Shown here: positions 1,678 to 15,667 of the stretch, piece by piece
How positions within the stretch are numbered: the first letter of the stretch is position 1
Layout of the letters: each line of letters begins with the position of its first letter
Assembly (NCBI GenBank): GCA_964553825.1
Contig: CAZKLT010000001.1
Location: 51,423 to 115,422, forward strand
Length of the DNA stretch: 64,000 bases
Origin: an uncultured Gammaproteobacteria bacterium
GTDB taxonomy: Bacteria; Patescibacteriota; Microgenomatia; UBA10105; UBA927
Reading direction: 5' to 3'
The notes under the pieces: model-generated
The model's database searches: none
What the model was told of the DNA's origin: nothing
Seen by the model: the letters and a program-made list of their open reading frames with translations, nothing else
Translations under genes and position numbers: made by a program

Positions 1678-2229
1678 ATGCCTATCTATACCCGAACCGG
1701 TGACGCCGGAAAGACAAGTCTTTTTGGGGGCAAGCGCGTCCTGAAGTGTGAAGAACTGGTCGACGCGTATGGCTCGATGGACGAGCTGAACAGCTGGGTA
1801 GGCCTAATCATTTCGGCGGCAAAACACGATCATATCCGTGAGCTTCTGACGAAAATCCAGGGAGATCTTTTTACTATCGGTGGGAATCTTGCCGGCTGGA
1901 AAACGGATTTAGCGACCCTTCCCGTTCGGGTGACGGAAATGGAGGTAGAAATTGACGCGATGGAAGCAGAGCTCCCCGCGCTTACGAATTTTATCCTTCC
2001 CGGTGGATCCGTCTCTGCTTCCTACGTTCATATCGCAAGAAGTATAACAAGACGGGTAGAAAGACAGGTCGTTGCGCTGTCCCAAAAGGAAACAGTAGAT
2101 ACGGATATCATAAAATATCTCAACCGTCTTTCTGACTTGTTTTTTATGCTCGCGCGGTTTATAAATAAGGACGATAACAAAGTGGAAACGGTTTGGTCCG
2201 GTATTCCCCGAAAAGAAACAAAAAAATAA
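1678..2229 (+). CDS. ATP:cob(I)alamin adenosyltransferase, PduO-type
   Basis: N-terminus MPIYTRTGDAGKTSLFGGKRV...DAYGSMDELNSWVG matches the PduO/MMAB adenosyltransferase signature. Lies 7 nt downstream of the B12-dependent RNR. Confidence 0.8.
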   Translation: MPIYTRTGDAGKTSLFGGKRVLKCEELVDAYGSMDELNSWVGLIISAAKHDHIRELLTKIQGDLFTIGGNLAGWKTDLATLPVRVTEMEVEIDAMEAELPALTNFILPGGSVSASYVHIARSITRRVERQVVALSQKETVDTDIIKYLNRLSDLFFMLARFINKDDNKVETVWSGIPRKETKK

Positions 2230-2389
2230 TCTTATCGGAAGCTCCGAATCCCGTGAAATTCGGGAACTGTGCCGCAACGGTAATAGTCCGGTCGCAGGCT
2301 TCTGGTATTTGCGCATCCTTCGAGTCAAAGGAGAAGCCACAAGCACCTTCTCGATTCGAGAAGGTTTTTTGTGGCAGAGAGGCAAGTAT

Positions 2390-4393
2390 ATGGGTCACGA
2401 ATGGGATCCCCAAAACGAAACAAATTATCTGGAAGAAATGCTCAATAGTGGCGTCGGGAAAGATGCGGTGTCCATAGCGCTTGCAAAGGACGCTGTTGCC
2501 TACGAGCACGAATTCATTCTCGCCCAAACACTCATTCCGTTTGACTATGAAATCAATGATCAGGGCAGATGGACCGATAGCGGCGGGAAGACCATCGAGG
2601 AATTGACTGATCCTGATGATGTCGGAGCTGACCGACTCGGCCGTGTGCTTAGGGCCGAGTCGGCGATGATGAACGATCCGTCTATAGCAATGGCTGCGGT
2701 TGCCAGTCCAGATTTGGGGTTCGGTAGGAATTACGTGTATCTTTATTCTCGCGGCGAAGGAAATGCCATACAGGCACTCGCAGTCGAGTTTCATGGCAAT
2801 GAAGATGCTCTGAAAAAATTTTTCCACGGTCTGGGAGCCGCAGGAGAAGCAGACACCTCTCAAAGTGATGATTTTGAGAAACCGCTTCTTTTTTCCCGCG
2901 CCATTACGCCCCAGGAGATTCTCGCACAGGCACAGGAAACAGTCGCACACGAAAAACAAGCTGAAGGGTATCTTACCCGTCTTTCTCGGGACGTATCCGT
3001 ATTTCCGCTTATTTTGCGGGAGCGGGAGCGGCAAGTTGAACAGATGGCGGAAATAGCGCTTGAACATATGATCGCACAGGATGATGTGCGGGAAGGCTTG
3101 GCCGCAGCAGTATACGGCGTAATCGCTCTTTCTGCAGATACGGCGCAGGATACCGCCATGCGGGTCGTAGACGATACAAAAGAAGCGTTCGTCGGTGTGA
3201 TTGACTATGTGAAACGCAGACCCCCTATAGAACAATCGATGACACTCGTGCCTCAGTATGAATCTCCGACGTATACGACACACATAGAAGAAATTGTACG
3301 GGGAGAGAATCCGGCTTTGATACCGGCGCTTACAGCCGAACCTGCAGGCGAGGACTTTGCTCGTCTGACCGAAGAGGAGCAGGTACAGGTTTGGAATGAA
3401 ACGGTACAAGACGTGTTGTCCGTTCCCGAACAGACCGCTCAGCAGATGGCAGCGGAGGTGGTGCAGATTTGGGAAATTACATCCCGGGCAAGAGAAGTAC
3501 TGGAAGTAGCCACAGAGGTATTTGATCAAATACCGGACGTATGCGTACCGGCAGGACTTTTTATGCTGGACGTCCTTGCCATGCAACCGCATGAAGGAGG
3601 CTTGGGAGAGGGAGTTTTCCTGATACCACCCGAAATGGCCCCGGTCGTGTCAGCAGAAACAGCGTCTCAAAAAGGGATACCAGAGCAGATTACTGTTTGG
3701 CATAAGGATATTCCTAATGACTCTTTGGAAGTGGCGCTATCTTTTATTGCCAGTGAGGCAAACGGAAAAGAAAAAACATTTGCACCTGAGCGGCTTTTGC
3801 GCATTGCCGATTCTGTGGATGTGTATACGCTGACGGAAACGGTGGCGTTTGTTAAAACTATCGATACGCTTTCGCTTGCGGAACAAAAAAATGCAATCGC
3901 TCACGAGAAAGCATCGACGGGAGAGAAAATACTATTTCTTACCGGAGAGATTCAAAGAATAATCGTCGGAACGAACCCAGAAACGTTTTCGGCCACAAAA
4001 ACAAAAGAGGAGGCAGAGAAAAAAGAGGTATCTCAATTCTCCCTTGCGGTCGGCCTTTGGCTTATGTTGAAACTTATGAATTATTACTCCGCGCTCTCTT
4101 CCCTCGAGGGCTTCGTCGCCGGTCTGACACTGGGGAAGAACAGATTCGGTCATTCTCAAAACCATGGGTTATTGAGGCATATCTCAGAAGACGGTAAAGC
4201 AGAAGTCCTGGTGCAGCGGGAGTCGGGACAGTGGCTTCTTCTTTCGATCATTTGGCATCTGGCAATGATTCGTGAACAAGGAATGCAGACGACAAAAACC
4301 AATACCGGGAAGAAAAAGACAGTAAAAAAAACCATTGTCGCAAATATGCCGATTATGCCACTCTATGGCGTCATATTTGCCTATGGTTCGTGA
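2390..4393 (+). CDS. Hypothetical large acidic protein with C-terminal hydrophobic segment
   Basis: Long ORF. The track start at 2309 is TTG. The ATG at 2390 is preceded by AGAGAGG at 7 nt spacing. No family motif recognised. C-terminal region has two hydrophobic stretches (FSLAVGLWLMLKLMNYY, WLLLSIIWHLAMI). Confidence 0.5.
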   Translation: MGHEWDPQNETNYLEEMLNSGVGKDAVSIALAKDAVAYEHEFILAQTLIPFDYEINDQGRWTDSGGKTIEELTDPDDVGADRLGRVLRAESAMMNDPSIAMAAVASPDLGFGRNYVYLYSRGEGNAIQALAVEFHGNEDALKKFFHGLGAAGEADTSQSDDFEKPLLFSRAITPQEILAQAQETVAHEKQAEGYLTRLSRDVSVFPLILRERERQVEQMAEIALEHMIAQDDVREGLAAAVYGVIALSADTAQDTAMRVVDDTKEAFVGVIDYVKRRPPIEQSMTLVPQYESPTYTTHIEEIVRGENPALIPALTAEPAGEDFARLTEEEQVQVWNETVQDVLSVPEQTAQQMAAEVVQIWEITSRAREVLEVATEVFDQIPDVCVPAGLFMLDVLAMQPHEGGLGEGVFLIPPEMAPVVSAETASQKGIPEQITVWHKDIPNDSLEVALSFIASEANGKEKTFAPERLLRIADSVDVYTLTETVAFVKTIDTLSLAEQKNAIAHEKASTGEKILFLTGEIQRIIVGTNPETFSATKTKEEAEKKEVSQFSLAVGLWLMLKLMNYYSALSSLEGFVAGLTLGKNRFGHSQNHGLLRHISEDGKAEVLVQRESGQWLLLSIIWHLAMIREQGMQTTKTNTGKKKTVKKTIVANMPIMPLYGVIFAYGS

Positions 4394-4405
4394 TATGATA
4401 CTTCT

Positions 4406-4849
4406 ATGACTAATCTGCCCGCAGATACGAGTGTAACTGATGCACAAACGACTCAGTCGACACCGCCCGTTTCCCCGGTAACGCCGTCGGGGAATAAGGA
4501 AATGGTTGGCGGTACGATTGACGCCAAAGAAGGCCTTATCGATGTTACCGGTCAGGAAATGGCGCTACCCAAGGAAGTCGCTTCAGCGGGAGTGCACATG
4601 CAGCCAACGACGATTCCGATCCCTCCCCCGGTAGCGCAGCTGGGCGTAAAACCGGCAGGACCCAACGTGCCCGTATCGCCAACACCCACAGTGACGCTTC
4701 CTATTTCAGATGACCAGATCGCACAGGGACTTACATTGAGTGTAACCGAGTCATGGAGATGGCTTTCCGAGTGGTGTGTCAAGCGGTTGAAACAGCTACA
4801 TGTCGGCATTCAGACGGTCGGCGGGAAAATAATCCGGGTAAAAATTTAA
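4406..4849 (+). CDS. Hypothetical Pro/Thr-rich protein
   Basis: ATG start 13 nt after the previous stop. Low-complexity P/T/V-rich sequence, no signal peptide seen. The coding call rests only on ORF length and operon context. Confidence 0.4.
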   Translation: MTNLPADTSVTDAQTTQSTPPVSPVTPSGNKEMVGGTIDAKEGLIDVTGQEMALPKEVASAGVHMQPTTIPIPPPVAQLGVKPAGPNVPVSPTPTVTLPISDDQIAQGLTLSVTESWRWLSEWCVKRLKQLHVGIQTVGGKIIRVKI

Positions 4850-4853
4850 TCGT

Positions 4854-7202
4854 ATGCAGGATCAATTACTTGATGGTGTTTATAGACTTGAAGTAATAGG
4901 AATAAGCGTTTTGCTCATGCTGTTTTTTTTGGGCGGGCTTTTTTTGGTGGGCTATATTCTGTTTCTTATGTGGAAATACAGAAACAGGGAAGAACACTCG
5001 CTTGAGACGGTGCTTCTTCAGATTGCCGTGCCCCGCGATAACGAAATTAAGATTGACGCCGCAGAACAGATGTTTTCAAGTCTTCACAGCATCGCACATG
5101 GAGATTTTTGGTCCTTTCTCAAGCCGCAGGAGCATTTGTCCTTTGAGATCGTGGCGCGGCCGGAAGACATTCGATTTTATGTTGCGGTCCCCAAGAAGCT
5201 CACCGACCTCGTCGAGAAGCAAATTCATGGAGCATATCCGGGAGCAGACATTCGGCAGGTAGAGGAATATGCGCTCTTTTCTGAGACCGGTAAAGTGGCT
5301 TTTGCCGCATTGTGTCTCGGAGGCGCGGATTATCAGCCGCTTCGTGTTTTTCGTGATCTTCCCACCGATCCGTTGTCTTCCATAACATCCGTTTTGGCCA
5401 AAATGCGTCCCGGGGAAGCTGCCGTTGTTCAGATATTGGTTCAGCCGGCAAATGATAAATGGCGGGGGCTTGGCAGATCATATATATCGAAAGTAAAGAA
5501 AAATGAAGCAAACCCCGATAAGGCAAGCTTTTCCGTAGATCCCAAGACACTGGAAGCCATTGAGCAGAAGGTAAGTAAGCCAGGATTTAACACCGTTATT
5601 CGGTGTGTGGTGTCGGCGGAAACGAAAGAAAACGCGCAGATGCATCTGGATAATCTATTGACTAGTTTCAGCCAGTTCTCATCCGACCATAATCACTTTA
5701 CGAAAGTAAAAATGCCATTCAAGCAGTTGTTTATGATGGACTTCATTTATCGGTATTTTCCGATTATGAATGTACCGCTTTTTCGCCAATTCAGCGTCAT
5801 GAACAGTGATGAGTTGGCAAGCGTATTTCATCTCCCGAATAAATCAATCGAAACTGCGCATATTTACTGGCTGAATGCAAAGCGGGCACCGGCACCCTCG
5901 CAAATTCCCATGAGCGGTCTGTATTTGGGTAAGTCCCGGTACCGTGGTGTAGAGCGGCCGATTTTCATTGGTGAGGATGACAGAAGAAGGCATATGTACG
6001 TCATCGGGAAAACAGGCACCGGCAAATCACAGTTATTAGAAGAAATGATTATTCAGGATATCAATGAAGGAAAGGGGATCGCCGTTGTCGATCCTCATGG
6101 TGATCTTATTGATGGTATCCTTGCGCGCATGCCCGCGTCCCGCGCAGAAGACGTAATTTATTTTGACCCGTCTGACCTTGAGCGGCCGATGGGGCTCAAC
6201 ATGCTTGAAGCCAAAACAGAAGAGCAAAAACATTTCGTGGTTACCTCCATTGTCGGTCTTATGTATAAGCTGTATGACCCGATGAAAACCGGTATCATCG
6301 GGCCCCGATTCGAACACGCGATTCGAAACGCCATGTTAACGGTTATGGTGGAGCCAGGCAACACGTTTGTGGAAGTAGTGCGTGTGTTAACGGACAGCGC
6401 ATTTGTGCAGGAGCTTTTGCCGAAGCTGCAGGATCCGATTATCCGTCGGTATTGGACTGATCAGATTGCGCAGACAGCTGACTTTCATAAATCTGAGGTG
6501 CTTGATTATATCGTTTCCAAATTCGGCCGATTTGTCACCAATAAACTCATGCGTAATATCATCGGCCAATCCCAATCGTCATTTGATTTCCGCAAAGTAA
6601 TGGATGACGGGAAAATTTTACTGGTCAATCTTGCCAAGGGAAAAATTGGGGAAGAGAACAGTAACTTCCTGGGACTTATTCTGGTGCCGCGCATTCTTAT
6701 ATCCGCTATGAGTCGTCAGGAAATTCCGGAAAGTCAGCGCCGAGATTTCTACTTGTATGTCGATGAATTTCAGAACTTTGCGACACCCGATTTCGCACAA
6801 ATTCTTTCAGAAGCCAGAAAATACCGCCTCAACCTTATCGTAGCGAATCAATTCATCGGTCAAATGGAAGAAGAGGTGAAAAACGCCGTGTTTGGGAATG
6901 TCGGAACCGTTGTTTCGTTCCGCGTTGGTGTTACCGATGCCAACTATCTCCAGCATGAATTCCAGCCGACGTTTAATGAAGCAGATCTTATCAATATCGA
7001 CAAATTCAATGCTTATATAAAGACCAGCGTCAGAAATGAACCGGTTAAACCATTTAGCATGGACTTAACGAAAGACATGACGAAAGTAAATGCTGCAAAA
7101 AATCCAAAAGTGTCCGAGGCAATCATCCAATTATCGCGATTGAAATTCGGCCGATCAAGAGAATTGGTCGAGGCAGAGATTGCACATCGTGCGCGATTGT
7201 AA
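4854..7202 (+). CDS. Type IV secretion coupling protein-like ATPase (VirD4/TraG/TraD family), membrane-anchored
   Basis: N-terminal transmembrane helix pair. Walker A IGKTGTGKS. C-terminal block YVDEFQNFATPDF...RKYRLNLIVANQFIGQ...FGNVGTVVSFRV resembles the TraG-D_C / TrwB C-terminal region (DEF Walker B, Q-rich sensor). Confidence 0.6.
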   Translation: MQDQLLDGVYRLEVIGISVLLMLFFLGGLFLVGYILFLMWKYRNREEHSLETVLLQIAVPRDNEIKIDAAEQMFSSLHSIAHGDFWSFLKPQEHLSFEIVARPEDIRFYVAVPKKLTDLVEKQIHGAYPGADIRQVEEYALFSETGKVAFAALCLGGADYQPLRVFRDLPTDPLSSITSVLAKMRPGEAAVVQILVQPANDKWRGLGRSYISKVKKNEANPDKASFSVDPKTLEAIEQKVSKPGFNTVIRCVVSAETKENAQMHLDNLLTSFSQFSSDHNHFTKVKMPFKQLFMMDFIYRYFPIMNVPLFRQFSVMNSDELASVFHLPNKSIETAHIYWLNAKRAPAPSQIPMSGLYLGKSRYRGVERPIFIGEDDRRRHMYVIGKTGTGKSQLLEEMIIQDINEGKGIAVVDPHGDLIDGILARMPASRAEDVIYFDPSDLERPMGLNMLEAKTEEQKHFVVTSIVGLMYKLYDPMKTGIIGPRFEHAIRNAMLTVMVEPGNTFVEVVRVLTDSAFVQELLPKLQDPIIRRYWTDQIAQTADFHKSEVLDYIVSKFGRFVTNKLMRNIIGQSQSSFDFRKVMDDGKILLVNLAKGKIGEENSNFLGLILVPRILISAMSRQEIPESQRRDFYLYVDEFQNFATPDFAQILSEARKYRLNLIVANQFIGQMEEEVKNAVFGNVGTVVSFRVGVTDANYLQHEFQPTFNEADLINIDKFNAYIKTSVRNEPVKPFSMDLTKDMTKVNAAKNPKVSEAIIQLSRLKFGRSRELVEAEIAHRARL

Positions 7203-7267
7203 TCTGCCTCTTTACATACCTGTAGAAAAAGGTATTCTCCTAATATAGCCAAAAAATAAATATCTTC

Positions 7268-8665
7268 ATGGATATATCTTCCGGACCCACAGGGGCAGCA
7301 AAATTGCCAGAAAAAATAGTCTACTTTTTTAATATGTCTGAGGACGTATGGCCCTTTATCAGCGCCATGTCCGACAAGAAGAGCCGTACCAGCGAAATTC
7401 AGGAGAATGTATTTCTTGCAGACATGCGGTTATTTCAATTTTGCGCGGAGGATGATCATCTCTTTTTCATTTGTCCGCAGGGAGTAAGTCCCGAATTTCT
7501 TGATTACTTCCAGAGTTTGTTCGGAATTAAACATATAACCATCATCACGATGACACATCATACCGGATCACTGTGCGACGATATTCTGAATGACGAAACC
7601 ATAATGAAGAAATTGATAGAAATTGCCAATTCCACGAGACGATTGACGGTTACCAGTTATGCGACGACACCTGAATTCCTTCATTTGATGCGGGAACTGC
7701 GTAACCGGGGCCTGACGATTTACGCGCCGGAGTCGCCGGAGGAAGAAGACGGATGGACGGTGAATTTCTACGGAAGCAAATCAGGGATACGACAACTGGC
7801 ACAACAAAGTCAGAATGTCGAGCCGGATTTTAAGATGGCTGAAGGATTGATATGCGTCGGCATTGAGGACGCAGCGAAGATCGCCGCCAAACGATATGTC
7901 AAAGAAAACGGAGTGGTGATCAAGACCAATAAGGGACACGCGGGGATGGGCGTTCTTCTCTTTCGTCCGGGCGATCTTCCGCAGGATTATTTATCCTGTG
8001 AGCAAATGATACTCAGGGTCCTGGAGAAGGAAGCGTATTGGAGTAAATTTCCGATCATCGTGGAAGATTTTATCCAAATACAAACTTCTATCGGCGGCGG
8101 CTGTCCCAACGTGGAGTTTAAGATTCTGAAAAACGGGAGAGTAGAGTTTCTTTATTATTGTGGCATGCGCATGACTGCGGACGGCATCTTTAAGGGTGTT
8201 GAAATTCATAATGAAGTAGTCAGCGATCGCATTGCCGCACAAATGGTAGATACCGGTTTTTTTGTGGGAGAGCGGTATGCAGCAGCAGGATATAGGGGAT
8301 ATTATGATCTTGATTTTGTGGCCGGAAGAAACGGTCAACTGTTTGTGACGGAGTCGAATGTTCGGACAACGGGAGGAACGTTTGTGTACACGACGGCGTT
8401 AAAACTTTTCGGGAAAGATTTTATGTATATCACCAATGTACTGTCAAATAACAGTTACGATATTTCCCATCTTGGGCATCAGACATTTTCCCAAATTCAG
8501 GAAAAACTCCGTCCCATATTATTTAATAAATCGACGCAGGAAGGAGTATTAACAGTTTCTGAGAACTTGCTTCGAATGGATAAACTGGCGTACATTATAT
8601 TCGGTAAAACGAAAAAACGAGCCTACGATATTGAGGCAGAGATGGAATCGCTTCTGAAAGTCTAA
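7268..8665 (+). CDS. ATP-grasp fold protein (predicted ligase), function unknown
   Basis: Motifs KTNKGHAGMGV (phosphate-binding loop-like), EDFIQ, and DLDFV....LFVTESNVR (ATP-grasp Mg/ATP site E-x-N-like). Family assignment is tentative. Confidence 0.4.
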   Translation: MDISSGPTGAAKLPEKIVYFFNMSEDVWPFISAMSDKKSRTSEIQENVFLADMRLFQFCAEDDHLFFICPQGVSPEFLDYFQSLFGIKHITIITMTHHTGSLCDDILNDETIMKKLIEIANSTRRLTVTSYATTPEFLHLMRELRNRGLTIYAPESPEEEDGWTVNFYGSKSGIRQLAQQSQNVEPDFKMAEGLICVGIEDAAKIAAKRYVKENGVVIKTNKGHAGMGVLLFRPGDLPQDYLSCEQMILRVLEKEAYWSKFPIIVEDFIQIQTSIGGGCPNVEFKILKNGRVEFLYYCGMRMTADGIFKGVEIHNEVVSDRIAAQMVDTGFFVGERYAAAGYRGYYDLDFVAGRNGQLFVTESNVRTTGGTFVYTTALKLFGKDFMYITNVLSNNSYDISHLGHQTFSQIQEKLRPILFNKSTQEGVLTVSENLLRMDKLAYIIFGKTKKRAYDIEAEMESLLKV

Positions 8666-8748
8666 TCCCCACGTTTGATATAATACGTCTACTATTGCTT
8701 CCGAACAAAGATCACTGGAAAGAAGTCGTAGGTGTTTCGTCCCAGAAG

Positions 8749-8820
8749 GCGTCCGTAGCTCAGCGGTAGAGCGATTGTCTTATACACAATTGGTCGGTGG
8801 TTCGAATCCATCCGGACGCA
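8749..8820 (+). tRNA. tRNA with anticodon UAU (decodes AUA; isoleucine by anticodon), no encoded CCA
   Basis: Manual cloverleaf: acceptor GCGTCCG/CGGACGC, D-stem GCTC/GAGC, anticodon stem ATTGT/ACAAT with loop CTTATAC (U33, anticodon TAT at 8781-8783, A37), T-arm GGTGG-TTCGAAT-CCATC, discriminator A. Confidence 0.8.
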
Positions 8821-8821
8821 C

Positions 8822-9346
8822 ATGGAATTAGTTGTTCTTGTTGACGAAGACGATAATCCTATCGGAACGGCACCGAAGGATACTGTGCATACGCAAAATA
8901 CACCGCTTCATCGCGCATTTTCCGTATTTCTTTTTGATAAAAAAAACAGACTGCTTCTCACCAAGCGTTCACTGAAGAAAAAAACATTTCCCGGAGTTTG
9001 GACGAATACGGTTTGTGGTCATGTTGGACCAGATGAAACCGTTATTTCCGCCGCAACCCGGAGACTAAAAGAGGAGTTAGGCATAACTGAAATAGCCGTA
9101 AGACTCGTCGCTCCGTATAGGTATACGTTTACGGATGTGCATGGAATCATGGAAAATGAAATCTGTCCGATTCTTGTCGGATACTTTGACGGTGACCCTA
9201 TTGTCAACCCGTCTGAAATAGACGACTGGAAGCGGGTAGACTGGCATGCTTTTTTGGAAGAAATTAAAGCCAATCCTGGTACGTACTCCCCGTGGAGCGA
9301 ACAAGAGGCGCTTATACTTCAACAGACAGATCCGGCACTGCGGTAA
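8822..9346 (+). CDS. idi: Isopentenyl-diphosphate delta-isomerase, type 1 (Nudix)
   Basis: LHRAFSVFLF...LLLTKRSLKKKTFPGVWTNTVCGHVGPDE matches the IDI-1 signature (Cys and Nudix-like region). Confidence 0.8.
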   Translation: MELVVLVDEDDNPIGTAPKDTVHTQNTPLHRAFSVFLFDKKNRLLLTKRSLKKKTFPGVWTNTVCGHVGPDETVISAATRRLKEELGITEIAVRLVAPYRYTFTDVHGIMENEICPILVGYFDGDPIVNPSEIDDWKRVDWHAFLEEIKANPGTYSPWSEQEALILQQTDPALR

Positions 9347-10345: not shown

Positions 10346-10768
10346 TTACTCGAGGTCAAGAAGTTTCGCGAGTTGGGAGGTTGACGGGGTGTGAATTTTG
10401 GGCACAACTGCAAGTTGTGCGCCGATCATTTCCGCCTGGTGTCTTTTTTTATCCAGGATTGGGTCTCCTTCTGTGACGGCAATGACGGTAGGACGTATTT
10501 GGGTGACCAATTTGAAATAGTCTGCGTCCGTCTTCATAGGCGGCAGGGGAATAACTTCATCGACGAATGAAAGTGATTCCAGCATTTCTTTGCGTTGTTT
10601 CTGCGGATGAATGGGCCTGGTTTCCCCTTTTGTGTGCCGTACATTTTCATCCGATTCCAAAGCGACCACTAATCGCTCACCGAAGGATTTCGCCTGTTTA
10701 AGAAACGAAACATGGCCAAAATGGATAAAATCGAAGCAACCACCGACAAGAACGGTTTTATTATTCAT
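10346..10768 (-). CDS. Cytidylyltransferase-family nucleotidyltransferase (TagD/RibL-like, HxGH motif)
   Basis: VLVGGCFDFIHFGHVSFLKQAK is the (T/H)xGH nucleotidyltransferase signature. About 140 aa, like glycerol-3-phosphate cytidylyltransferase or archaeal-type FAD synthetase. Confidence 0.6.
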   Translation of the reverse strand: MNNKTVLVGGCFDFIHFGHVSFLKQAKSFGERLVVALESDENVRHTKGETRPIHPQKQRKEMLESLSFVDEVIPLPPMKTDADYFKLVTQIRPTVIAVTEGDPILDKKRHQAEMIGAQLAVVPKIHTPSTSQLAKLLDLE

Positions 10769-11486
10769 GGTTTATTTTTCGGCGTATTTCACTGACAGCT
10801 TTCGCATTATCATCTTTAGCCTTATTACTCATCGTTTTAAATTCATCAAATGTAATTTTTTGTGCACCTTGAGTGAAGGGGTTATAGTAATCGACTAATG
10901 TATCATCCTGAAGGTCGGGACAAGTCAGCTCAAACATTTTTCTTATATAGAGTATGGTAGCCGAAAAATGTGTTTGGAGTCCATTGGTTGCCATATCTTC
11001 ATATACTGTCGGATCAACATCCAACAGGTCGGCGACTACTTTTCCATTGTTCATAGCATCTATTTCATTTTCTAGATCGAGTTGCATGAGCGAATATATC
11101 TTTTTAAGACGATCTTCCAATGGTAATTCTCTAAATCCTCTCCCATAGAGTATTTCGTGTCCAGTTTGTAAGTATGTTAATTCTGTTTTTTTAGGATTTT
11201 TCACTAATGCATGTCCACATTCATGGGCAAATATAGCTCTATAGTTCGGATCGGTTAGTAATTCAGGGTTGAAGTATACGATATTTCGTCGAGGTGAGTA
11301 TGAGGGATCATCTGTATCGATTGAAAATTTAATGCCCTTTGGCAATAGCTCATTGAGCGAACGTCCGCTATTAAGTTCGATCGTAAACGCGAGCGGATCC
11401 TCGGGTACTGGTGCCACATCTTTTATGCCGGTAGTAGCGTTGGAATTGACTATCTGTGTCATCCTTTCAAGTTGTGCATCTGACAT
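10761..11486 (-). CDS. Putative zinc metallopeptidase (HExxH motif), function unknown
   Basis: AIFAHECGHAL contains HExxH. No other family signature recognised. Overlaps the downstream gene by 8 nt. Confidence 0.5.
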   Translation of the reverse strand: MSDAQLERMTQIVNSNATTGIKDVAPVPEDPLAFTIELNSGRSLNELLPKGIKFSIDTDDPSYSPRRNIVYFNPELLTDPNYRAIFAHECGHALVKNPKKTELTYLQTGHEILYGRGFRELPLEDRLKKIYSLMQLDLENEIDAMNNGKVVADLLDVDPTVYEDMATNGLQTHFSATILYIRKMFELTCPDLQDDTLVDYYNPFTQGAQKITFDEFKTMSNKAKDDNAKAVSEIRRKINHE

Positions 11487-11504: not shown

Positions 11505-12926
11505 TTATAACGCAGTCCCTCTCAGGTATACGGCCTGCCATGGCCGGAAAGAAGAGTAAAACGTGGTATCCTGTAAGATTTCGTCGCCTCTGGTTACTCG
11601 GTATTGAAATGACGCTTTGGCTCCCCAGGCAGACCAGTCTACCTGCTTTATGATGCCGGCCTTCAGTGTTGGGTCGTCCTGATAGAGCGGTGGGGGAGGG
11701 GCTGACTGATTCCATACTTTATGGTCGAGAATTTCTGCCTGTCGTCCATCCCGGGTTCCGTAAAGTTCGAAGGTCAGGGTGAGATTTTTGGTGTCGGTTT
11801 TGGTTTGAATAAGAATATGAGCGGGCGTATCATTTTTAATACGCAGATCGACTGTCGGACTAAAAACTGTTGCATCCAGACCGGGTTTAAATCCGCCGTC
11901 TTCATAATAATGTACGCGATAGGCATGAGCATGCCGCTCGATTATAGGAATACCCGCATTGAGGGCCGCCCGAAACAATGTGCTGCTCACCTGACACACT
12001 CCGCCCCCGTCGCCCAGGACTGTTCTGCCATCCTTGATGATATATGCAGATTGATAGCCCGTGGCAGCCGAGATGTCTCCGATCGCGGCGTTAAACGAAA
12101 ATTCCTCGCCGGGCTTGATGAGAATGCCGTTAATACGGGAGGCAGCCAGAGCAACATTATGGATGCGTCCTGGTATTGAACCGGCAAATTCCGAATACCC
12201 GCGTCCGATAAGCTCTTTAATGCCGTATGCATTGGTGTCGTTGGTTTCCGATGAAGGTTGTATCTGGTCAACCGGTAAAAGAATAGTGATACGTTGCTGA
12301 TTCGTGCGTGCCGCGGTGGCAAATGCCTCATTGAGCCTGCGCTTTGTTTCCTCTCGGTTCAGACGTTGGCCGACCTTTGATGGCCGAAAGGATGTAACTT
12401 TTCCGTCCGCAAACTGGAAGAGCGCATCTTCCTCCGGGATATCAAGTTGGGCGGCCAAATTAGCGAGCGCCTCATCTACGACGCTTTCCTTCCATCGGAA
12501 ATACGGTGCGAGATTGACTGTTTTCTGAAGGAACGTGACATTTAGATCGCTAAGAAATCGGCCGGAACGGCCGATAAGATACGCCTGTGTTGCTGAAAGA
12601 TCGGCATCATACCCTAGCTCTATATCACTGCCTGATATCGTAGCGATGGTGGATTTGAATTTTAATTCAAATTGCGCGTCGGCGAACGGTTCGTTTTTTG
12701 ATGTCCAGTATCGGACGACTTCGTCTTTTGTTTGAGATCCAAACGGTACGCCACCGATCATGACGTTGGGATAAATGCGTCCGGCGTAGTATCTGCGATA
12801 GAGCGACACAAAGATCAAACAAAGAAGAAGAAAAACAAGTGAGCCCGCAGCCAGCGCGCGCAGCCATCGAAGGGATGTAGAGTTATGTGATTGCCCCATG
12901 ATATGATAATTGTACTCGAATGCCAT
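11505..12926 (-). CDS. VanW-like protein (membrane-anchored)
   Basis: N-terminal TM anchor. GDGGGVCQVSSTLFRAALNAGIPIIERHAH is the characteristic VanW family core. Confidence 0.75.
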   Translation of the reverse strand: MAFEYNYHIMGQSHNSTSLRWLRALAAGSLVFLLLCLIFVSLYRRYYAGRIYPNVMIGGVPFGSQTKDEVVRYWTSKNEPFADAQFELKFKSTIATISGSDIELGYDADLSATQAYLIGRSGRFLSDLNVTFLQKTVNLAPYFRWKESVVDEALANLAAQLDIPEEDALFQFADGKVTSFRPSKVGQRLNREETKRRLNEAFATAARTNQQRITILLPVDQIQPSSETNDTNAYGIKELIGRGYSEFAGSIPGRIHNVALAASRINGILIKPGEEFSFNAAIGDISAATGYQSAYIIKDGRTVLGDGGGVCQVSSTLFRAALNAGIPIIERHAHAYRVHYYEDGGFKPGLDATVFSPTVDLRIKNDTPAHILIQTKTDTKNLTLTFELYGTRDGRQAEILDHKVWNQSAPPPPLYQDDPTLKAGIIKQVDWSAWGAKASFQYRVTRGDEILQDTTFYSSFRPWQAVYLRGTAL

Positions 12927-14406
12927 GAATGATCCAACTACCCAAGCGGGTGTTTCACCTGTTGTTCCTCAGGCTCCCAATGGGCCCGGTGAGCCGTTTG
13001 TTGTTCCGCCCGCACCTGTCGGAACCAATCCTTTTATCCCCCAGACGCCAACCGGAGGTCCGCCGAACGGAGAAATGGCTGTCACTGCACGACCGAACTC
13101 ATGGTTTCGCCGAATGCTGACTGTTGGCAGTATCCTTATCGTGCTGGCCCTCCTTCTTGTGGGAGGTCGTTTCGCCATGGGAATGTTGTCTGGCGGAAAG
13201 GAAGTAACAATAACCTATTGGGGCCTTTGGGAAAATGAAGCCACGGTAAAGAGCCTTATCGCAGATTTTGAAGCAACGCATCCGAAAATTAAGGTGACCT
13301 ATGTTAAGCAATCCCATCGACAGTATCGAGAGCGGCTTCAAGGGGCGGTTGGACGGGGGGACGGCCCGGACGTATTTCGTTTCCATAATACTTGGGTGCC
13401 GATGTTCCGGAATGAATTGAGTCCGGCCCCGGAAACAGTTATGAGCACGCAGGAGTTTGCCTCGACATTTTATCCGGTGGCAAGCGCTGATTTGGTCGGC
13501 GGGCAGGCGATTTACGGTATGCCTGTGATGATAGACGGACTTGGACTCTACTATAATGAGGATCTTTTTGCGGCTGCAGGTGTAACACCGCCCTCGACGT
13601 GGGAGGAACTGTTGGCGATTGTTCCCAAGTTGACCGTGCGGACCGAAAATGCAATTCTGACATCGGCTATTGCGCTCGGGACATCAGGGAACGTTGAGCA
13701 TTTTAGCGACATTCTCGCAACGATGATGATGCAAAACGGCGCAAAACTGTCTGCGCCCACCGGCGCACAGGCTGAGGAAGCGCTCGTGTTTTACCGGAAG
13801 TTTTCCAATCCTTCCGACCCGGTCTATACGTGGAACGATACGCTTGATAACTCAATTTCTGCTTTTGCCTCCAGTAAGGTTGCGATGATCCTGGCTCCAT
13901 CATGGCGCGTGTTTGATATCAAACAGCTTAATCCCGCGCTTCGGTTTAAGGTTGTGCCCATACCACAGCTTGCCGGGAATACCGTTACATGGGCATCCTA
14001 TTGGGTGGAGGGCGTATCGGCGAAGAGTAAGTACAAAGAGCAGGCATGGGAATTTGTGAACTTTCTGACCAGCAGCGAAGCGACCACGAAATTGTTCACA
14101 GAGGCGTCAAAAACGCGTTTGTTTGGCGAACTGTATGCTCGTGTCGATTTGGGCAACACGCTTATTGACGATCCCTATGCCGGTGCGTATATCAAACAGG
14201 CAGCAACCGCAAAATCGTTTCCCCTGGCATCACGGACGTTTGACAATGGGATAAACGATAAACTCATTAAGTATCTGGAGGATGCAGTAAACGCGGTCGG
14301 TCTTGGTGCCTCGCCCACTGAGGCGCTTCAAACGGCACATAATGGTTTCCGTCAGGTGTTGGGAGACTATGGTCTGACCAGTGGCGCTGCCCCCGCAACC
14401 CCGTAG
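12925..14406 (+). CDS. ABC transporter substrate-binding protein (carbohydrate, family 1-like) with Pro-rich N-terminal tail and TM anchor; orphan (no permease/ATPase adjacent)
   Basis: VTITYWGLWENEA...KIKVTYVKQ...WVPMF resembles a solute-binding family 1 sugar SBP. Start is uncertain: TTG at 12910, ATG at 12925 or ATG at 13075. Confidence 0.7.
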   Translation: MNDPTTQAGVSPVVPQAPNGPGEPFVVPPAPVGTNPFIPQTPTGGPPNGEMAVTARPNSWFRRMLTVGSILIVLALLLVGGRFAMGMLSGGKEVTITYWGLWENEATVKSLIADFEATHPKIKVTYVKQSHRQYRERLQGAVGRGDGPDVFRFHNTWVPMFRNELSPAPETVMSTQEFASTFYPVASADLVGGQAIYGMPVMIDGLGLYYNEDLFAAAGVTPPSTWEELLAIVPKLTVRTENAILTSAIALGTSGNVEHFSDILATMMMQNGAKLSAPTGAQAEEALVFYRKFSNPSDPVYTWNDTLDNSISAFASSKVAMILAPSWRVFDIKQLNPALRFKVVPIPQLAGNTVTWASYWVEGVSAKSKYKEQAWEFVNFLTSSEATTKLFTEASKTRLFGELYARVDLGNTLIDDPYAGAYIKQAATAKSFPLASRTFDNGINDKLIKYLEDAVNAVGLGASPTEALQTAHNGFRQVLGDYGLTSGAAPATP

Positions 14407-14409
14407 GGT

Positions 14410-15309
14410 ATGGCTAAAGAATTATCTGAATCCTTGTACGCGACCGTGGCGTATGCCGATATTTTTGAGTACTCGCTTTCTGCCGATGAGGCGGCGCGAT
14501 GGTTCATTGGAGCAGAAGTGAAGGGCATCCCGCGCCCAGACTCACGCTGGATACGGCAAAAAGGCCGTTTCCTTACGCTACGTGGCAGAGGTCGTCTGGG
14601 TGCGCTCAGGCGTTTGCGACAGCAGGCGGCACGGCAAAAATGGTTAATTGCCAAAAAGGCAGCAGCCTGGCTTCGTTTTGTGCCGACGATTACGCTTGTC
14701 GGCGTCACCGGGGCGCTTGCGATGAACAATGTTACATCAGACGACGATATTGATCTTTTTATCGTTACGAAAAAAGACACGCTTTGGACGACACGTTTCC
14801 TGGCAACACTGCTGCTTGATATGCTCGGCCTTCGAAGAAAACCGAATCAAACGCATGTACGCGATAAGATTTGTCTCAATATGTTTATGAGTGAAGAAGG
14901 TCTTCGGGTTACCCGGAAGGATCAGGATTTATTTTCAGCGCACGAAGTATTGCAGATGACTCCGCTGTGGGAACGCGGATCTGTGCACTATGTATTTCTC
15001 CGGCGGAATGCATGGGCAAGAATATTTCTTCCGAATGCGTGGAGGGAAGCAATCAGCAGCGCGTCAGAGCGTAGAAAAATCCGAACGCCCCGGTTCGATG
15101 CACCTTTTTTGTATTTGTTTCGTTTTGTTGAACCACTGTCGAAACGGTTACAAGCGTGGTATATGCGTCGACATAGGACAACCGAAAGAGTGACGAGTCA
15201 TGTGCTTCAGTTTCACCCGAGAGATGCCCGTGTTTGGGTAAAAGAAGCATTTGAAAAACGGCTAAAATTGCGCGACATACCACTTGACAAGTTTTTTTAT
15301 GACCGCTAA
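14410..15309 (+). CDS. Hypothetical protein, possible minimal nucleotidyltransferase fold
   Basis: GVTGALAMNNVTSDDDIDLFIV resembles the GS-x9-DxD motif of Pol-beta-type nucleotidyltransferases. Weak. Confidence 0.4.
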   Translation: MAKELSESLYATVAYADIFEYSLSADEAARWFIGAEVKGIPRPDSRWIRQKGRFLTLRGRGRLGALRRLRQQAARQKWLIAKKAAAWLRFVPTITLVGVTGALAMNNVTSDDDIDLFIVTKKDTLWTTRFLATLLLDMLGLRRKPNQTHVRDKICLNMFMSEEGLRVTRKDQDLFSAHEVLQMTPLWERGSVHYVFLRRNAWARIFLPNAWREAISSASERRKIRTPRFDAPFLYLFRFVEPLSKRLQAWYMRRHRTTERVTSHVLQFHPRDARVWVKEAFEKRLKLRDIPLDKFFYDR

Positions 15310-15310
15310 A

Positions 15311-15337
15311 ATAGCACTCATCGTAAAAGAGTGATAA
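15311..15337 (+). promoter_or_regulatory. CIRCE-like inverted repeat (HrcA operator) upstream of groES
   Basis: TAGCACTC-N9-GAGTGATAA versus consensus TTAGCACTC-N9-GAGTGCTAA. Sits 34 nt upstream of the groES ATG, with RBS AAGGAGGG following. Confidence 0.7.
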
Positions 15338-15370
15338 ATTGTTTTGTTTTTCTTAAAAAAGGAGGGCCGT

Positions 15371-15667
15371 ATGGCAAAAGTAAATATTCAACCGTTATTT
15401 GATAATGTCCTGGTAAAACCACTTCAGGCCGAGGAAAAGCTTCCGTCTGGCATTATTCTTCCCGATAGCGCAAAAGAGAAGCCCCAAATGGGTGAGATTA
15501 TGGCCATTGGACCCGGGGGAACCGATGACAAAGGAAATGCCGTTAAGATGGTCGTAAAAATCGGACAAAAAGTTATGTATAAAAAATGGGGCGGAAATGA
15601 AATCAAGGTGAATGGTCAGGAATGGATGCTCGTTGAGCAGAAAGATATATTGGCAATCGTAGAATAA
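15371..15667 (+). CDS. groES: Co-chaperonin GroES
   Basis: MAKVNIQPLFDNVLVKP...LPSGIILPDSAKEKPQMGEIMAIGPG is canonical GroES. The ATG at 15371 is preceded by AAGGAGGG. Confidence 0.9.
   Translation: MAKVNIQPLFDNVLVKPLQAEEKLPSGIILPDSAKEKPQMGEIMAIGPGGTDDKGNAVKMVVKIGQKVMYKKWGGNEIKVNGQEWMLVEQKDILAIVE

Follow-up and report, generated by a model that had tools for sequence, protein, structure and literature searches.

A putative relaxase-less type IV coupling protein among housekeeping genes of Patescibacteria

The window analyzed here, a 64-kb stretch of contig CAZKLT010000001.1 from an uncultured bacterium that GTDB places in the Patescibacteriota, carries at 4854-7202 on the plus strand a gene for a 782-residue ATPase resembling type IV coupling proteins (T4CPs). 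The locus raises the question of what such a protein does where no conjugation genes accompany it, and whether the genes around it belong to the same machine. The explanation that we favor overall, with moderate confidence, is that the ATPase is a T4CP descendant without a relaxase that acts with a small partner encoded directly upstream and with a type IV secretion system (T4SS) supplied in trans, and that the remaining flanking genes are unrelated to it.

Family identity of the ATPase

The T4CP family is defined by its nucleotide-binding domain (PMC7431656). In the window protein, this domain contains the Walker A motif GKTGTGKS (nt 6006-6029) and the Walker B motif YLYVDEFQNF (nt 6750-6779), and these, like other motor residues, do not vary across 23 diverse family members. 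Three T4CP profiles match it above their gathering cut-offs, namely TrwB_AAD_bind (30.6 bits, cut-off 20.5), T4SS-DNA_transf (30.0 bits, cut-off 20.1), and TraG-D_C (25.8 bits, cut-off 22.0). The generic DUF87 profile also exceeds its cut-off, whereas FtsK_SpoIIIE (13.2 bits, cut-off 24) and HerA_C (11.8 bits, cut-off 22) remain below theirs. Precomputed annotation assigns PF10412, PF02534, and PF12696, together with PF26449, to the ATPase and its relatives. At the level of individual systems, the best NCBIfam matches are TraD/VirD4-type models, all sub-threshold. The protein stays below every curated cut-off of the TraD/VirD4 equivalogs (TIGR03743 SXT_TraD, NF045973 CD1115, TIGR03754, and TIGR02759), with a top score of 56.3 bits for a cut-off of 366 and other scores of 15-38 bits for cut-offs of 250-648. 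Neither an AAA_10 or CagE_TrbE_VirB profile match nor a VirB4-type N-terminal domain was found in it. TrwB and DotL are the best sequence matches in the PDB, and TrwB is the top structural match, although structure alone does not cleanly separate a T4CP from VirB4 or HerA.

The protein begins with one strongly hydrophobic segment (residues 14-39, nt 4893-4970), which an AlphaFold2 model places within a long helix of residues 2-50. The segment is followed by KYRNREEH, and the positive-inside rule locates the bulk of the protein in the cytoplasm. An N-terminal transmembrane domain, a feature of most T4CPs though not of every one, is hence present in a variant topology with one helix. Two domains follow, DUF8128 (residues ~50-345) and the nucleotide-binding domain with a possible helical insertion (residues ~355-740), before two C-terminal helices with an LSRLK(F/Y)GR motif. 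DUF8128 is the Pfam family PF26449, assigned by precomputed annotation to the N-terminal ~300 residues, for which no papers were found in the searchable literature. In comparison with the T4CPs of characterized structure, TrwB of R388, VirD4, DotL, and Cagbeta, the ATPase shows ~17% identity. TrwB lacks the ~300-residue DUF8128 domain that the window protein has between membrane and motor, and unlike TrwB and VirD4, the window protein has one predicted transmembrane helix instead of two and no cognate relaxosome.

A sequence-only reading of this DNA had credited the protein with a membrane anchor, Walker motifs, and a TraG-D_C-like block, and had proposed profile searches to discriminate a T4CP from HerA or FtsK. 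All three hallmarks are borne out, and the profiles decide for the T4CP side; we assign the protein to the T4CP family with high confidence. A HerA/FtsK-type ATPase or a defense NTPase, of the HerA-nuclease or MADS mad8-like kind, is in our estimate very improbable. PADLOC did return mad8 and HerA matches, but these reflect the common P-loop fold and come without partner genes, and the defense-system reading was rejected. Besides the profile scores and the TrwB match, the membrane anchor argues against this class, as does the surrounding of the gene: no NurA, Sir2, nuclease, or other mad gene lies near it, and the context is one of housekeeping genes without a defense island. Moreover, the closest homologue outside the Candidate Phyla Radiation is encoded in the T4CP position next to a MOB_C relaxase, in an operon that has a separate VirB4.

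Ancestry, spread, and mode of action

Full-length homologues of the ATPase, including the DUF8128 region, occur outside the phylum at 20-30% identity (tblastn). Their hosts comprise Bacillus, Streptomyces, Staphylococcus, Clostridium, Sulfolobus, and haloarchaeal plasmids, as well as Bacillus phages. On the 24.7-kb plasmid NZ_CP032854 of Bacillus subtilis MH-1, the homologue WP_121549396, annotated as 'DUF87 domain-containing protein', heads a conjugation operon in which Replic_Relax, TcpC, TcpE, and an AAA_10 VirB4-like ATPase follow. Alignment of the Patescibacteria family with this protein by hhalign gave a probability of 100 and an E-value of 1.8e-50 over 668 columns at 25% identity. The two are thus homologous over nearly their full length, DUF8128-like region included. 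The differences lie in the C-terminus, which is ~100 residues longer in the plasmid protein, and in the companions, none of which accompanies the window gene within 64 kb. Replic_Relax corresponds to the MOB_C relaxase family (PMC5357655).

Phage proteins provide a second set of full-length homologues, represented by SPO1 gp27.4 and phage G gp156 (PHROG 5156, E 8.6e-92; tblastn coverage 73-84%). Unlike the window ATPase, gp27.4 is phage-encoded and is followed by gp27.3, a Replic_Relax protein. The pair of a DUF8128-type ATPase and Replic_Relax lies at 11919-15478 of the plasmid locus, at the head of the conjugation operon, and at 5794-9331 of the locus from the lytic phage SPO1, where both genes are unannotated. 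On these alignments, the window ATPase is probably a relaxase-less descendant of a conjugative T4CP of monoderm (Gram-positive/archaeal) type. Such descent fits the published conclusion that the T4SS of Patescibacteria derives from the monoderm MPF_FATA class.

The gene content of the window was surveyed for the missing apparatus. Every scanned gene is an ordinary chromosomal gene by Pfam, including ribonucleotide reductase (RNR), PduO, NUDIX, UvrD/AddA-type helicases, DnaK, NusA, IF2, PNPase, MetRS, MurJ, RmuC, and cell-envelope enzymes, and the composition profile reveals no atypical island. TsaD and GroES/GroEL were assigned from synteny with two closely related loci, L001 and L002. Pfam scans took in 7 and then 20 further open reading frames (ORFs), which together with GroEL, placed there by synteny, represent every ORF of VirB4-compatible length. 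None of the Pfam-scanned ORFs encodes a T4SS component, smaller components not being systematically excluded, and tblastn with single queries gave no match there to VirB4, MOB_C, FtsK, or Xer and none to a further T4CP paralogue. The lack of a VirB4 or relaxase gene, which the earlier reading had noted for the immediate flanks, hence extends, by these scans and searches, to the whole 64 kb. Precomputed Pfam annotation likewise lists no T4SS or relaxase gene within +/-10 kb of the ATPase in L001 and L002, and an association with a relaxase and a VirB4-containing T4SS was found neither in the window nor within 8 kb in the related loci.

Within the phylum, the family is widespread. Scoring returned more than 7,900 homologues, the best 120 of them with no less than 79% identity; the sources of these, where named, are labeled Gottesmanbacteria or Patescibacteria. 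At E<=1e-30, a library clustered at 50% identity yielded 6,279 cluster representatives. In species-representative genomes, a scan located the ATPase in 80 loci, each in housekeeping context, from many Patescibacteria classes: Levy-, Curtiss-, Roizman-, Woese-, Davies-, and Shapirobacteria, Dojkabacteria, WWE3, Saccharibacteria, Magasanik-, Uhr-, Berkel-, Staskawicz-, and Portnoybacteria, and Peregrinibacteria. Judged by these relatives, the window derives from a Gottesmanbacteria-like organism within the Candidate Phyla Radiation. Single-sequence searches found no VirB4-like or MOB_C-like gene within 8 kb of the ATPase in the 80 loci. Comparison with the loci L001 and L004 gave identities of 97 and 79% for the ATPase, 92 and 79% for RNR, 80 and 58% for PduO, 77 and 63% for NUDIX, and 75 and 44% for the 147-residue protein encoded upstream of the ATPase. 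TsaD reached 72% in L001 with no match in L004, and a 667-residue protein encoded further upstream was 51% identical in L001, where the ATPase is 97% identical, and unalignable in L004. The ATPase is accordingly conserved at least as well as every neighbor compared. The lineage is Patescibacteria-wide, chromosomally fixed, and strongly constrained, and this pattern suggests that it was inherited vertically.

These counts align with a published survey in which 5,713 VirD4-type T4CP homologues were recorded in 2,918 of 3,035 Patescibacteria genomes (Quinonero-Coronel et al. 2025, Microb Genom, PMC12102498). Only 148 of the T4CPs lie near virB4, relaxases occur in only 103 genomes, and VirB4 is present in 2,417 of the 3,035 (PMC12102498); published data also indicate that most Patescibacteria encode a T4SS. 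An orphan T4CP is the published norm for the phylum and nothing special to this locus, which agrees with the earlier remark that stand-alone ATPases of this kind occur in reduced-genome bacteria. The surveyed T4CPs resemble the window ATPase in being chromosomal, remote from virB4, relaxase-less, and near-universal in the same phylum. The survey counted them by ConjScan profiles and gave no account of their DUF8128 architecture, small partner, level of conservation, or tie to T4CPs paired with MOB_C (PMC12102498).

Variation within the family was recorded alongside. In some lineages (loci L036, L042, L047, and L051), two DUF8128-T4CP paralogues stand in tandem or are separated by a few genes; the intervening genes are sometimes the same ones, for proteins of ~200 (cluster c4) and ~346 residues (c32). 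Paceibacteria-like loci show the gene order small protein, ATPase, c34, c4, dnaX. In a sister group (P0193, P0202, and ~20 further representatives), the same ATPase domain, with 48-52% identity to the window protein, forms the C-terminus of ~1,450-residue proteins, and TPR repeats take the place of DUF8128 in the N-terminal ~1,000 residues. Other members have C-terminal extensions of 600-1,200 residues without a Pfam match. Domain fusions were considered as hints to function and set aside as uninformative, as members of 1,400-2,000 residues show only TPR or Pfam-less regions.

Only one kind of neighbor travels with the ATPase across the phylum, a small upstream protein with an N-terminal region of low complexity. 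In the window, this is the 147-residue product of 4406-4849 (+), whose gene ends 4 nt before the ATPase start. Its description as Pro/Thr-rich is supported by a count of 17 Pro and 17 Thr. The low-complexity Pro/Thr-rich region occupies the N-terminal part, the protein has no Pfam match, and a basic amphipathic C-terminal helix (SWRWLSEWCVKRLKQL...) is conserved. In Microgenomates, homologues are encoded immediately 5' of the ATPase (clusters c40 and c46, hhalign probability 97.9), and these small proteins have in common a W-L-x-x-W/F basic helix. Other classes have different small-protein families of similar architecture in the same position. Counting genes of 90-200 residues on the same strand and at most 130 nt upstream, 52 of 79 ATPase genes have such a neighbor, compared with 53 of 289 for the remaining large genes of these loci (odds ratio 8.6); the lack of phylogenetic independence among the loci inflates the p-values. 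The N-terminal share of P, T, S, Q, E, and A in the small upstream proteins is 0.53 vs 0.32. No homology among the small proteins of different classes was detected by hhalign (probabilities <1). The basic C-terminus presumably recalls T4SS signals.

A possible course of events follows from these elements. The ancestral element would have combined the same full-length architecture with a neighboring MOB_C relaxase and a VirB4/TcpC/TcpE apparatus; loss of the relaxase would have followed in Patescibacteria, and the T4CP gene would have come to lie among housekeeping genes. The present ATPase, whose catalytic motifs are all intact, may form a ring anchored in the membrane, with six subunits by analogy with TrwB and with DUF8128 as a cytoplasmic collar. 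ATP hydrolysis would drive recognition of a substrate and its feeding into a membrane channel, as T4CPs do, and the 147-residue partner could be either adaptor or substrate. The channel would most plausibly be a relaxase-less MPF_FATA-like T4SS encoded elsewhere on the chromosome and acting in trans, while the 667-residue protein and an ATP-grasp ligase encoded downstream would stand outside this machine. For the in-trans coupling to a chromosomal T4SS taken by itself, our confidence is tentative and falls short of even.

Several observations weigh against this scheme. In Southlakia epibionticum, the t4cp gene is not essential for epibiotic growth while the T4SS genes are, which speaks against an obligate partnership, and exaptation 'cannot be ruled out' according to the same study (PMC12102498). 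At least 501 genomes have a T4CP homologue with no detected VirB4 (2,918 vs 2,417; PMC12102498). The single predicted transmembrane helix departs from the two of VirD4 and TrwB. Small upstream proteins of different classes, given their lack of detectable homology, may be unrelated genes. With gaps of 12 and 4 nt in this window, one transcript may still span the ATPase gene and the 667-residue protein gene, which a riboswitch controls.

Some of these points favor the main rival explanation, which we regard as unlikely and in which the ATPase is an exapted, T4SS-independent motor recruited for a housekeeping job without a VirB4 apparatus. With its small partner, it might serve in chromosome segregation, dimer resolution, DNA uptake or export, or translocation of a specific protein. 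Its conservation is of housekeeping grade, matching or exceeding that of RNR and TsaD, and the single-sequence searches of the 80 loci brought up no VirB4-like or MOB_C-like gene within 8 kb. The non-essential T4CP comes from one transposon-sequencing study in which the T4SS is essential, and the T4CP is near-universal and commoner than VirB4 across the 3,035 genomes; T4CPs are, however, often encoded far from virB4 even in conjugative systems (PMC12102498). Incompleteness of metagenome-assembled genomes also inflates the count of T4CP-positive, VirB4-negative genomes. DNA-metabolism genes recur beside the ATPase (Xer-type recombinase in 16 loci, DnaX in 13, RNR in 11, and GyrB/GyrA in 8), but in a ~1-Mb genome any gene can be expected to lie in a dense housekeeping neighborhood, and the Xer gene mostly converges on the ATPase instead of sharing its orientation. 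A replacement of FtsK is unnecessary in Saccharibacteria TM7x, for which an ftsK gene is reported, and this role was not adopted. A tblastn search with the E. coli FtsK motor, which has little power, gave no match, either in the window or across 1.18 Mb of loci. The relaxase-less T4CP descendant working with a T4SS in trans remains the reading that we prefer.

Neighboring genes and the cobalamin riboswitch

The sequence-only reading had placed four ORFs on one strand, and their coordinates and spacing stand. The gene for the 667-residue acidic protein (2390-4393), the 147-residue gene, the ATPase gene, and the gene for a 465-residue ATP-grasp ligase (7268-8665) are separated by 12, 4, and 65 nt on the plus strand, with no terminator-like site in any of the three gaps. 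Upstream lie the 3' part of a class II-type RNR (28-1671, +; Pfam, with a TSCPD domain and a Cys-rich tail) and a PduO-type cob(I)alamin adenosyltransferase (1678-2229, +; Pfam). In L001 and L002, the RNR is complete at 808 residues and NrdR lies upstream. Three features had escaped that reading: a riboswitch at 2228-2372 (+), a promoter-like site at 7211-7238 within the 65-nt gap before the ATP-grasp gene, and a tRNA-Ile with anticodon TAT at 8749-8821 (+; ARAGORN, Rfam tRNA 74 bits) that ends the same-strand gene block. A tRNA-Ile with a TAT (UAU) anticodon is an uncommon bacterial way to read AUA, for which a lysidine-modified CAU is usual. An antisense ORF at 2159-3592 (-; 477 residues, rich in Cys, Arg, and Phe) overlaps the 667-residue gene and is taken to be a mechanical ORF rather than a gene.

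The element at 2228-2372 matches Rfam AdoCbl-II at 35.4 bits (E 2.3e-5), just below the gathering threshold of 36.5, and its intrinsic-terminator hairpin (2345-2365), followed by a T-run, represents the expression platform. A covariance model, R1, was built from seven copies and finds matches after pduO/RNR in L001, L003, L004, L005, L012, L014 (twice), L021, L085, and L086, of which those in L005, L012, L085, and L086 are further copies recovered by the model. Ten of 21 pairs change on both sides, with 93% of cells paired; none of 500 shuffles reaches the observed covariation, and slid controls collapse. In the loci found, which come from Microgenomates relatives, the riboswitch always lies 3' of RNR or pduO. 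Downstream of it stand, depending on the locus, either DUF4430 and DUF6580 cobalamin-uptake-type genes or a lineage-specific protein of 460-670 residues. By sequence, covariation, and B12 context, the element is a cobalamin riboswitch of Rfam clan CL00101.

The gene that it precedes in the window encodes a protein with a pI of 4.68, and the earlier statement that it belongs to no recognizable family is upheld: Pfam, NCBIfam, PADLOC, and PHROG scans returned no match. Conserved MSHEW N-termini, together with the riboswitch occupying 2228-2372, back the start ATG at 2390. The protein has a conserved N-terminal alpha/beta domain (residues ~1-250), a variable helical middle, and two conserved hydrophobic C-terminal helices ending in ...GVIFAYGS. 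Just 8 homologues were found among 5.8 billion proteins. The structure prediction that had been proposed did yield an AlphaFold2 model, of low confidence (pLDDT 51.6), but no Foldseek match at E<=0.001 came of it. In L004, the protein is reduced to a ~45-residue C-terminal motif in an upstream protein. L085 lacks the gene altogether, and there the B12 genes and the ATPase unit have a minus-strand gene between them. The order in L086 is riboswitch, DUF4430, DUF6580, a 664-residue protein, a 147-residue protein, and the ATPase, whereas in L021 the riboswitch-preceded gene is a different one on the strand opposite to the ATPase. Because the riboswitch precedes the 667-residue gene, always follows RNR or pduO, and elsewhere precedes B12-uptake genes, this lineage-restricted, fast-evolving protein is placed by its genomic context in a B12 regulon with class II RNR, PduO, and the DUF4430/DUF6580 uptake genes.

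Other riboswitch-associated genes were noted in passing. Proteins of 460-480 residues without a Pfam match are encoded in L012 (6147-7538), L014 (5741-7189), and L021 (5980-7422, -), and end in CxxC...CxxC zinc-ribbon-like tails like the Cys-rich C-terminus of the neighboring RNR. None of the riboswitch-preceded proteins of this size showed homology to the 667-residue protein; only the L004 protein has its C-terminal motif. In L085 (2843-4556), a DUF4430 protein and a 441-residue protein with faint prenyltransferase/SQHop_cyclase-like matches follow the riboswitch. The alpha/alpha-barrel and DUF4430 recall, as we suppose, two-domain transcobalamin or intrinsic factor and may be a bacterial B12-binding pair. 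The RNR of L087 (1-2037) contains an intein (Intein_splicing and LAGLIDADG endonuclease) in a 1,197-residue product.

Downstream of the ATPase, the ATP-grasp enzyme recognized earlier is confirmed by its Pre-ATP-grasp domain (PF18604, 32.6 bits, cut-off 27.5, E 1.2e-7). PDB matches are the ATP-grasp peptide ligase 8ynd (2.6e-7, residues 56-392), BesA, and PGM1, and PF18604 and PF18105 (PGM1_C) are annotated on relatives among 802 homologues. The protein shares the Pre-ATP-grasp domain and ATP-grasp core of PGM1/BesA-like ligases, but it scores far under the equivalog cut-offs (27 bits for NCBIfam BesA, cut-off 750, with other equivalogs also missed), and its family is confined to a Patescibacteria clade. 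The promoter-like site in front of it suggests that the gene possibly has its own promoter.

The sequence-only reading had combined the four genes into one operon for a dedicated export module, with the ATP-grasp enzyme modifying cargo and the 667- and 147-residue proteins as structural parts or cargo. Shared strand, short gaps, and the lack of terminator-like sites agree with this proposal, and the order of a 650-residue protein, the 147-residue protein, the ATPase, and the ATP-grasp ligase recurs in Gottesmanbacteria-like relatives, with ATP-grasp identity down to ~59-61%. For the neighborhood comparison, ORFs were called in all loci and then clustered. The ATP-grasp gene is present in 3 of 82 loci, and homologues of it and of the 667-residue protein stand beside the ATPase in the three closest loci only. 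The adjacency of ATPase and ATP-grasp genes persists only in the clade in which the entire region from RNR to GroEL is syntenic, and for that reason it provides no specific functional signal. In L004, the slot after the ATPase (79% identical) holds a D-Ala-D-Ala ligase (Ddl; 10359-11426), a different ATP-grasp enzyme, which could be a coincidence or a displacement; the 64-kb window itself yielded no Ddl. All other classes lack the ATP-grasp gene there. Together with the promoter-like site, the tie of the 667-residue gene to the riboswitch, its loss or decay in L085 and L004, and its displaced or substituted position in L086 and L021, these results largely refute the four-gene module, to which we attach hardly any probability. 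The co-occurrence analysis suggested earlier thus bears out the small upstream gene and fails for the other two, and we are fairly confident that the 667-residue protein and the ATP-grasp enzyme are decoupled from the ATPase.

In this window, nevertheless, no terminator-like site separates the 667-residue gene from the two that follow, so read-through could place the 147-residue and ATPase genes under the riboswitch, an arrangement that is not general. A further, rather improbable reading extends this point: the DUF8128-T4CP and its small partner would have been an autonomous two-component machine since the origin of the Patescibacteria, independent of VirB4 and relaxase, and gated here by cobalamin through read-through. 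If true, such a machine might serve the core cell biology of these ultra-small episymbionts, for instance by translocating or anchoring DNA or a specific protein at the membrane.

Meaning for the Patescibacteria

Orphan T4CPs at the scale of the phylum have already been published, and the window ATPase adds a member to them. What retains interest is the combination of a near-universal, conserved orphan T4CP with a small partner, the link to MOB_C-type plasmids and phages, and a riboswitch-controlled orphan protein. Through the riboswitch, this protein falls into the B12 regulon of organisms whose class II RNR depends on cobalamin that they must scavenge.

A large part of bacterial diversity falls within the Patescibacteria, whose T4SS was the first shown to be essential for the growth of its own carrier. 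The T4SS locus has no recognizable coupling protein, and the DUF8128-T4CP family is the obvious candidate for this role, or else an exapted motor. The single small partner, the homology to MOB_C-paired plasmid T4CPs, and the assignment of the other neighbors to separate systems provide handles for experiments in tractable Saccharibacteria.

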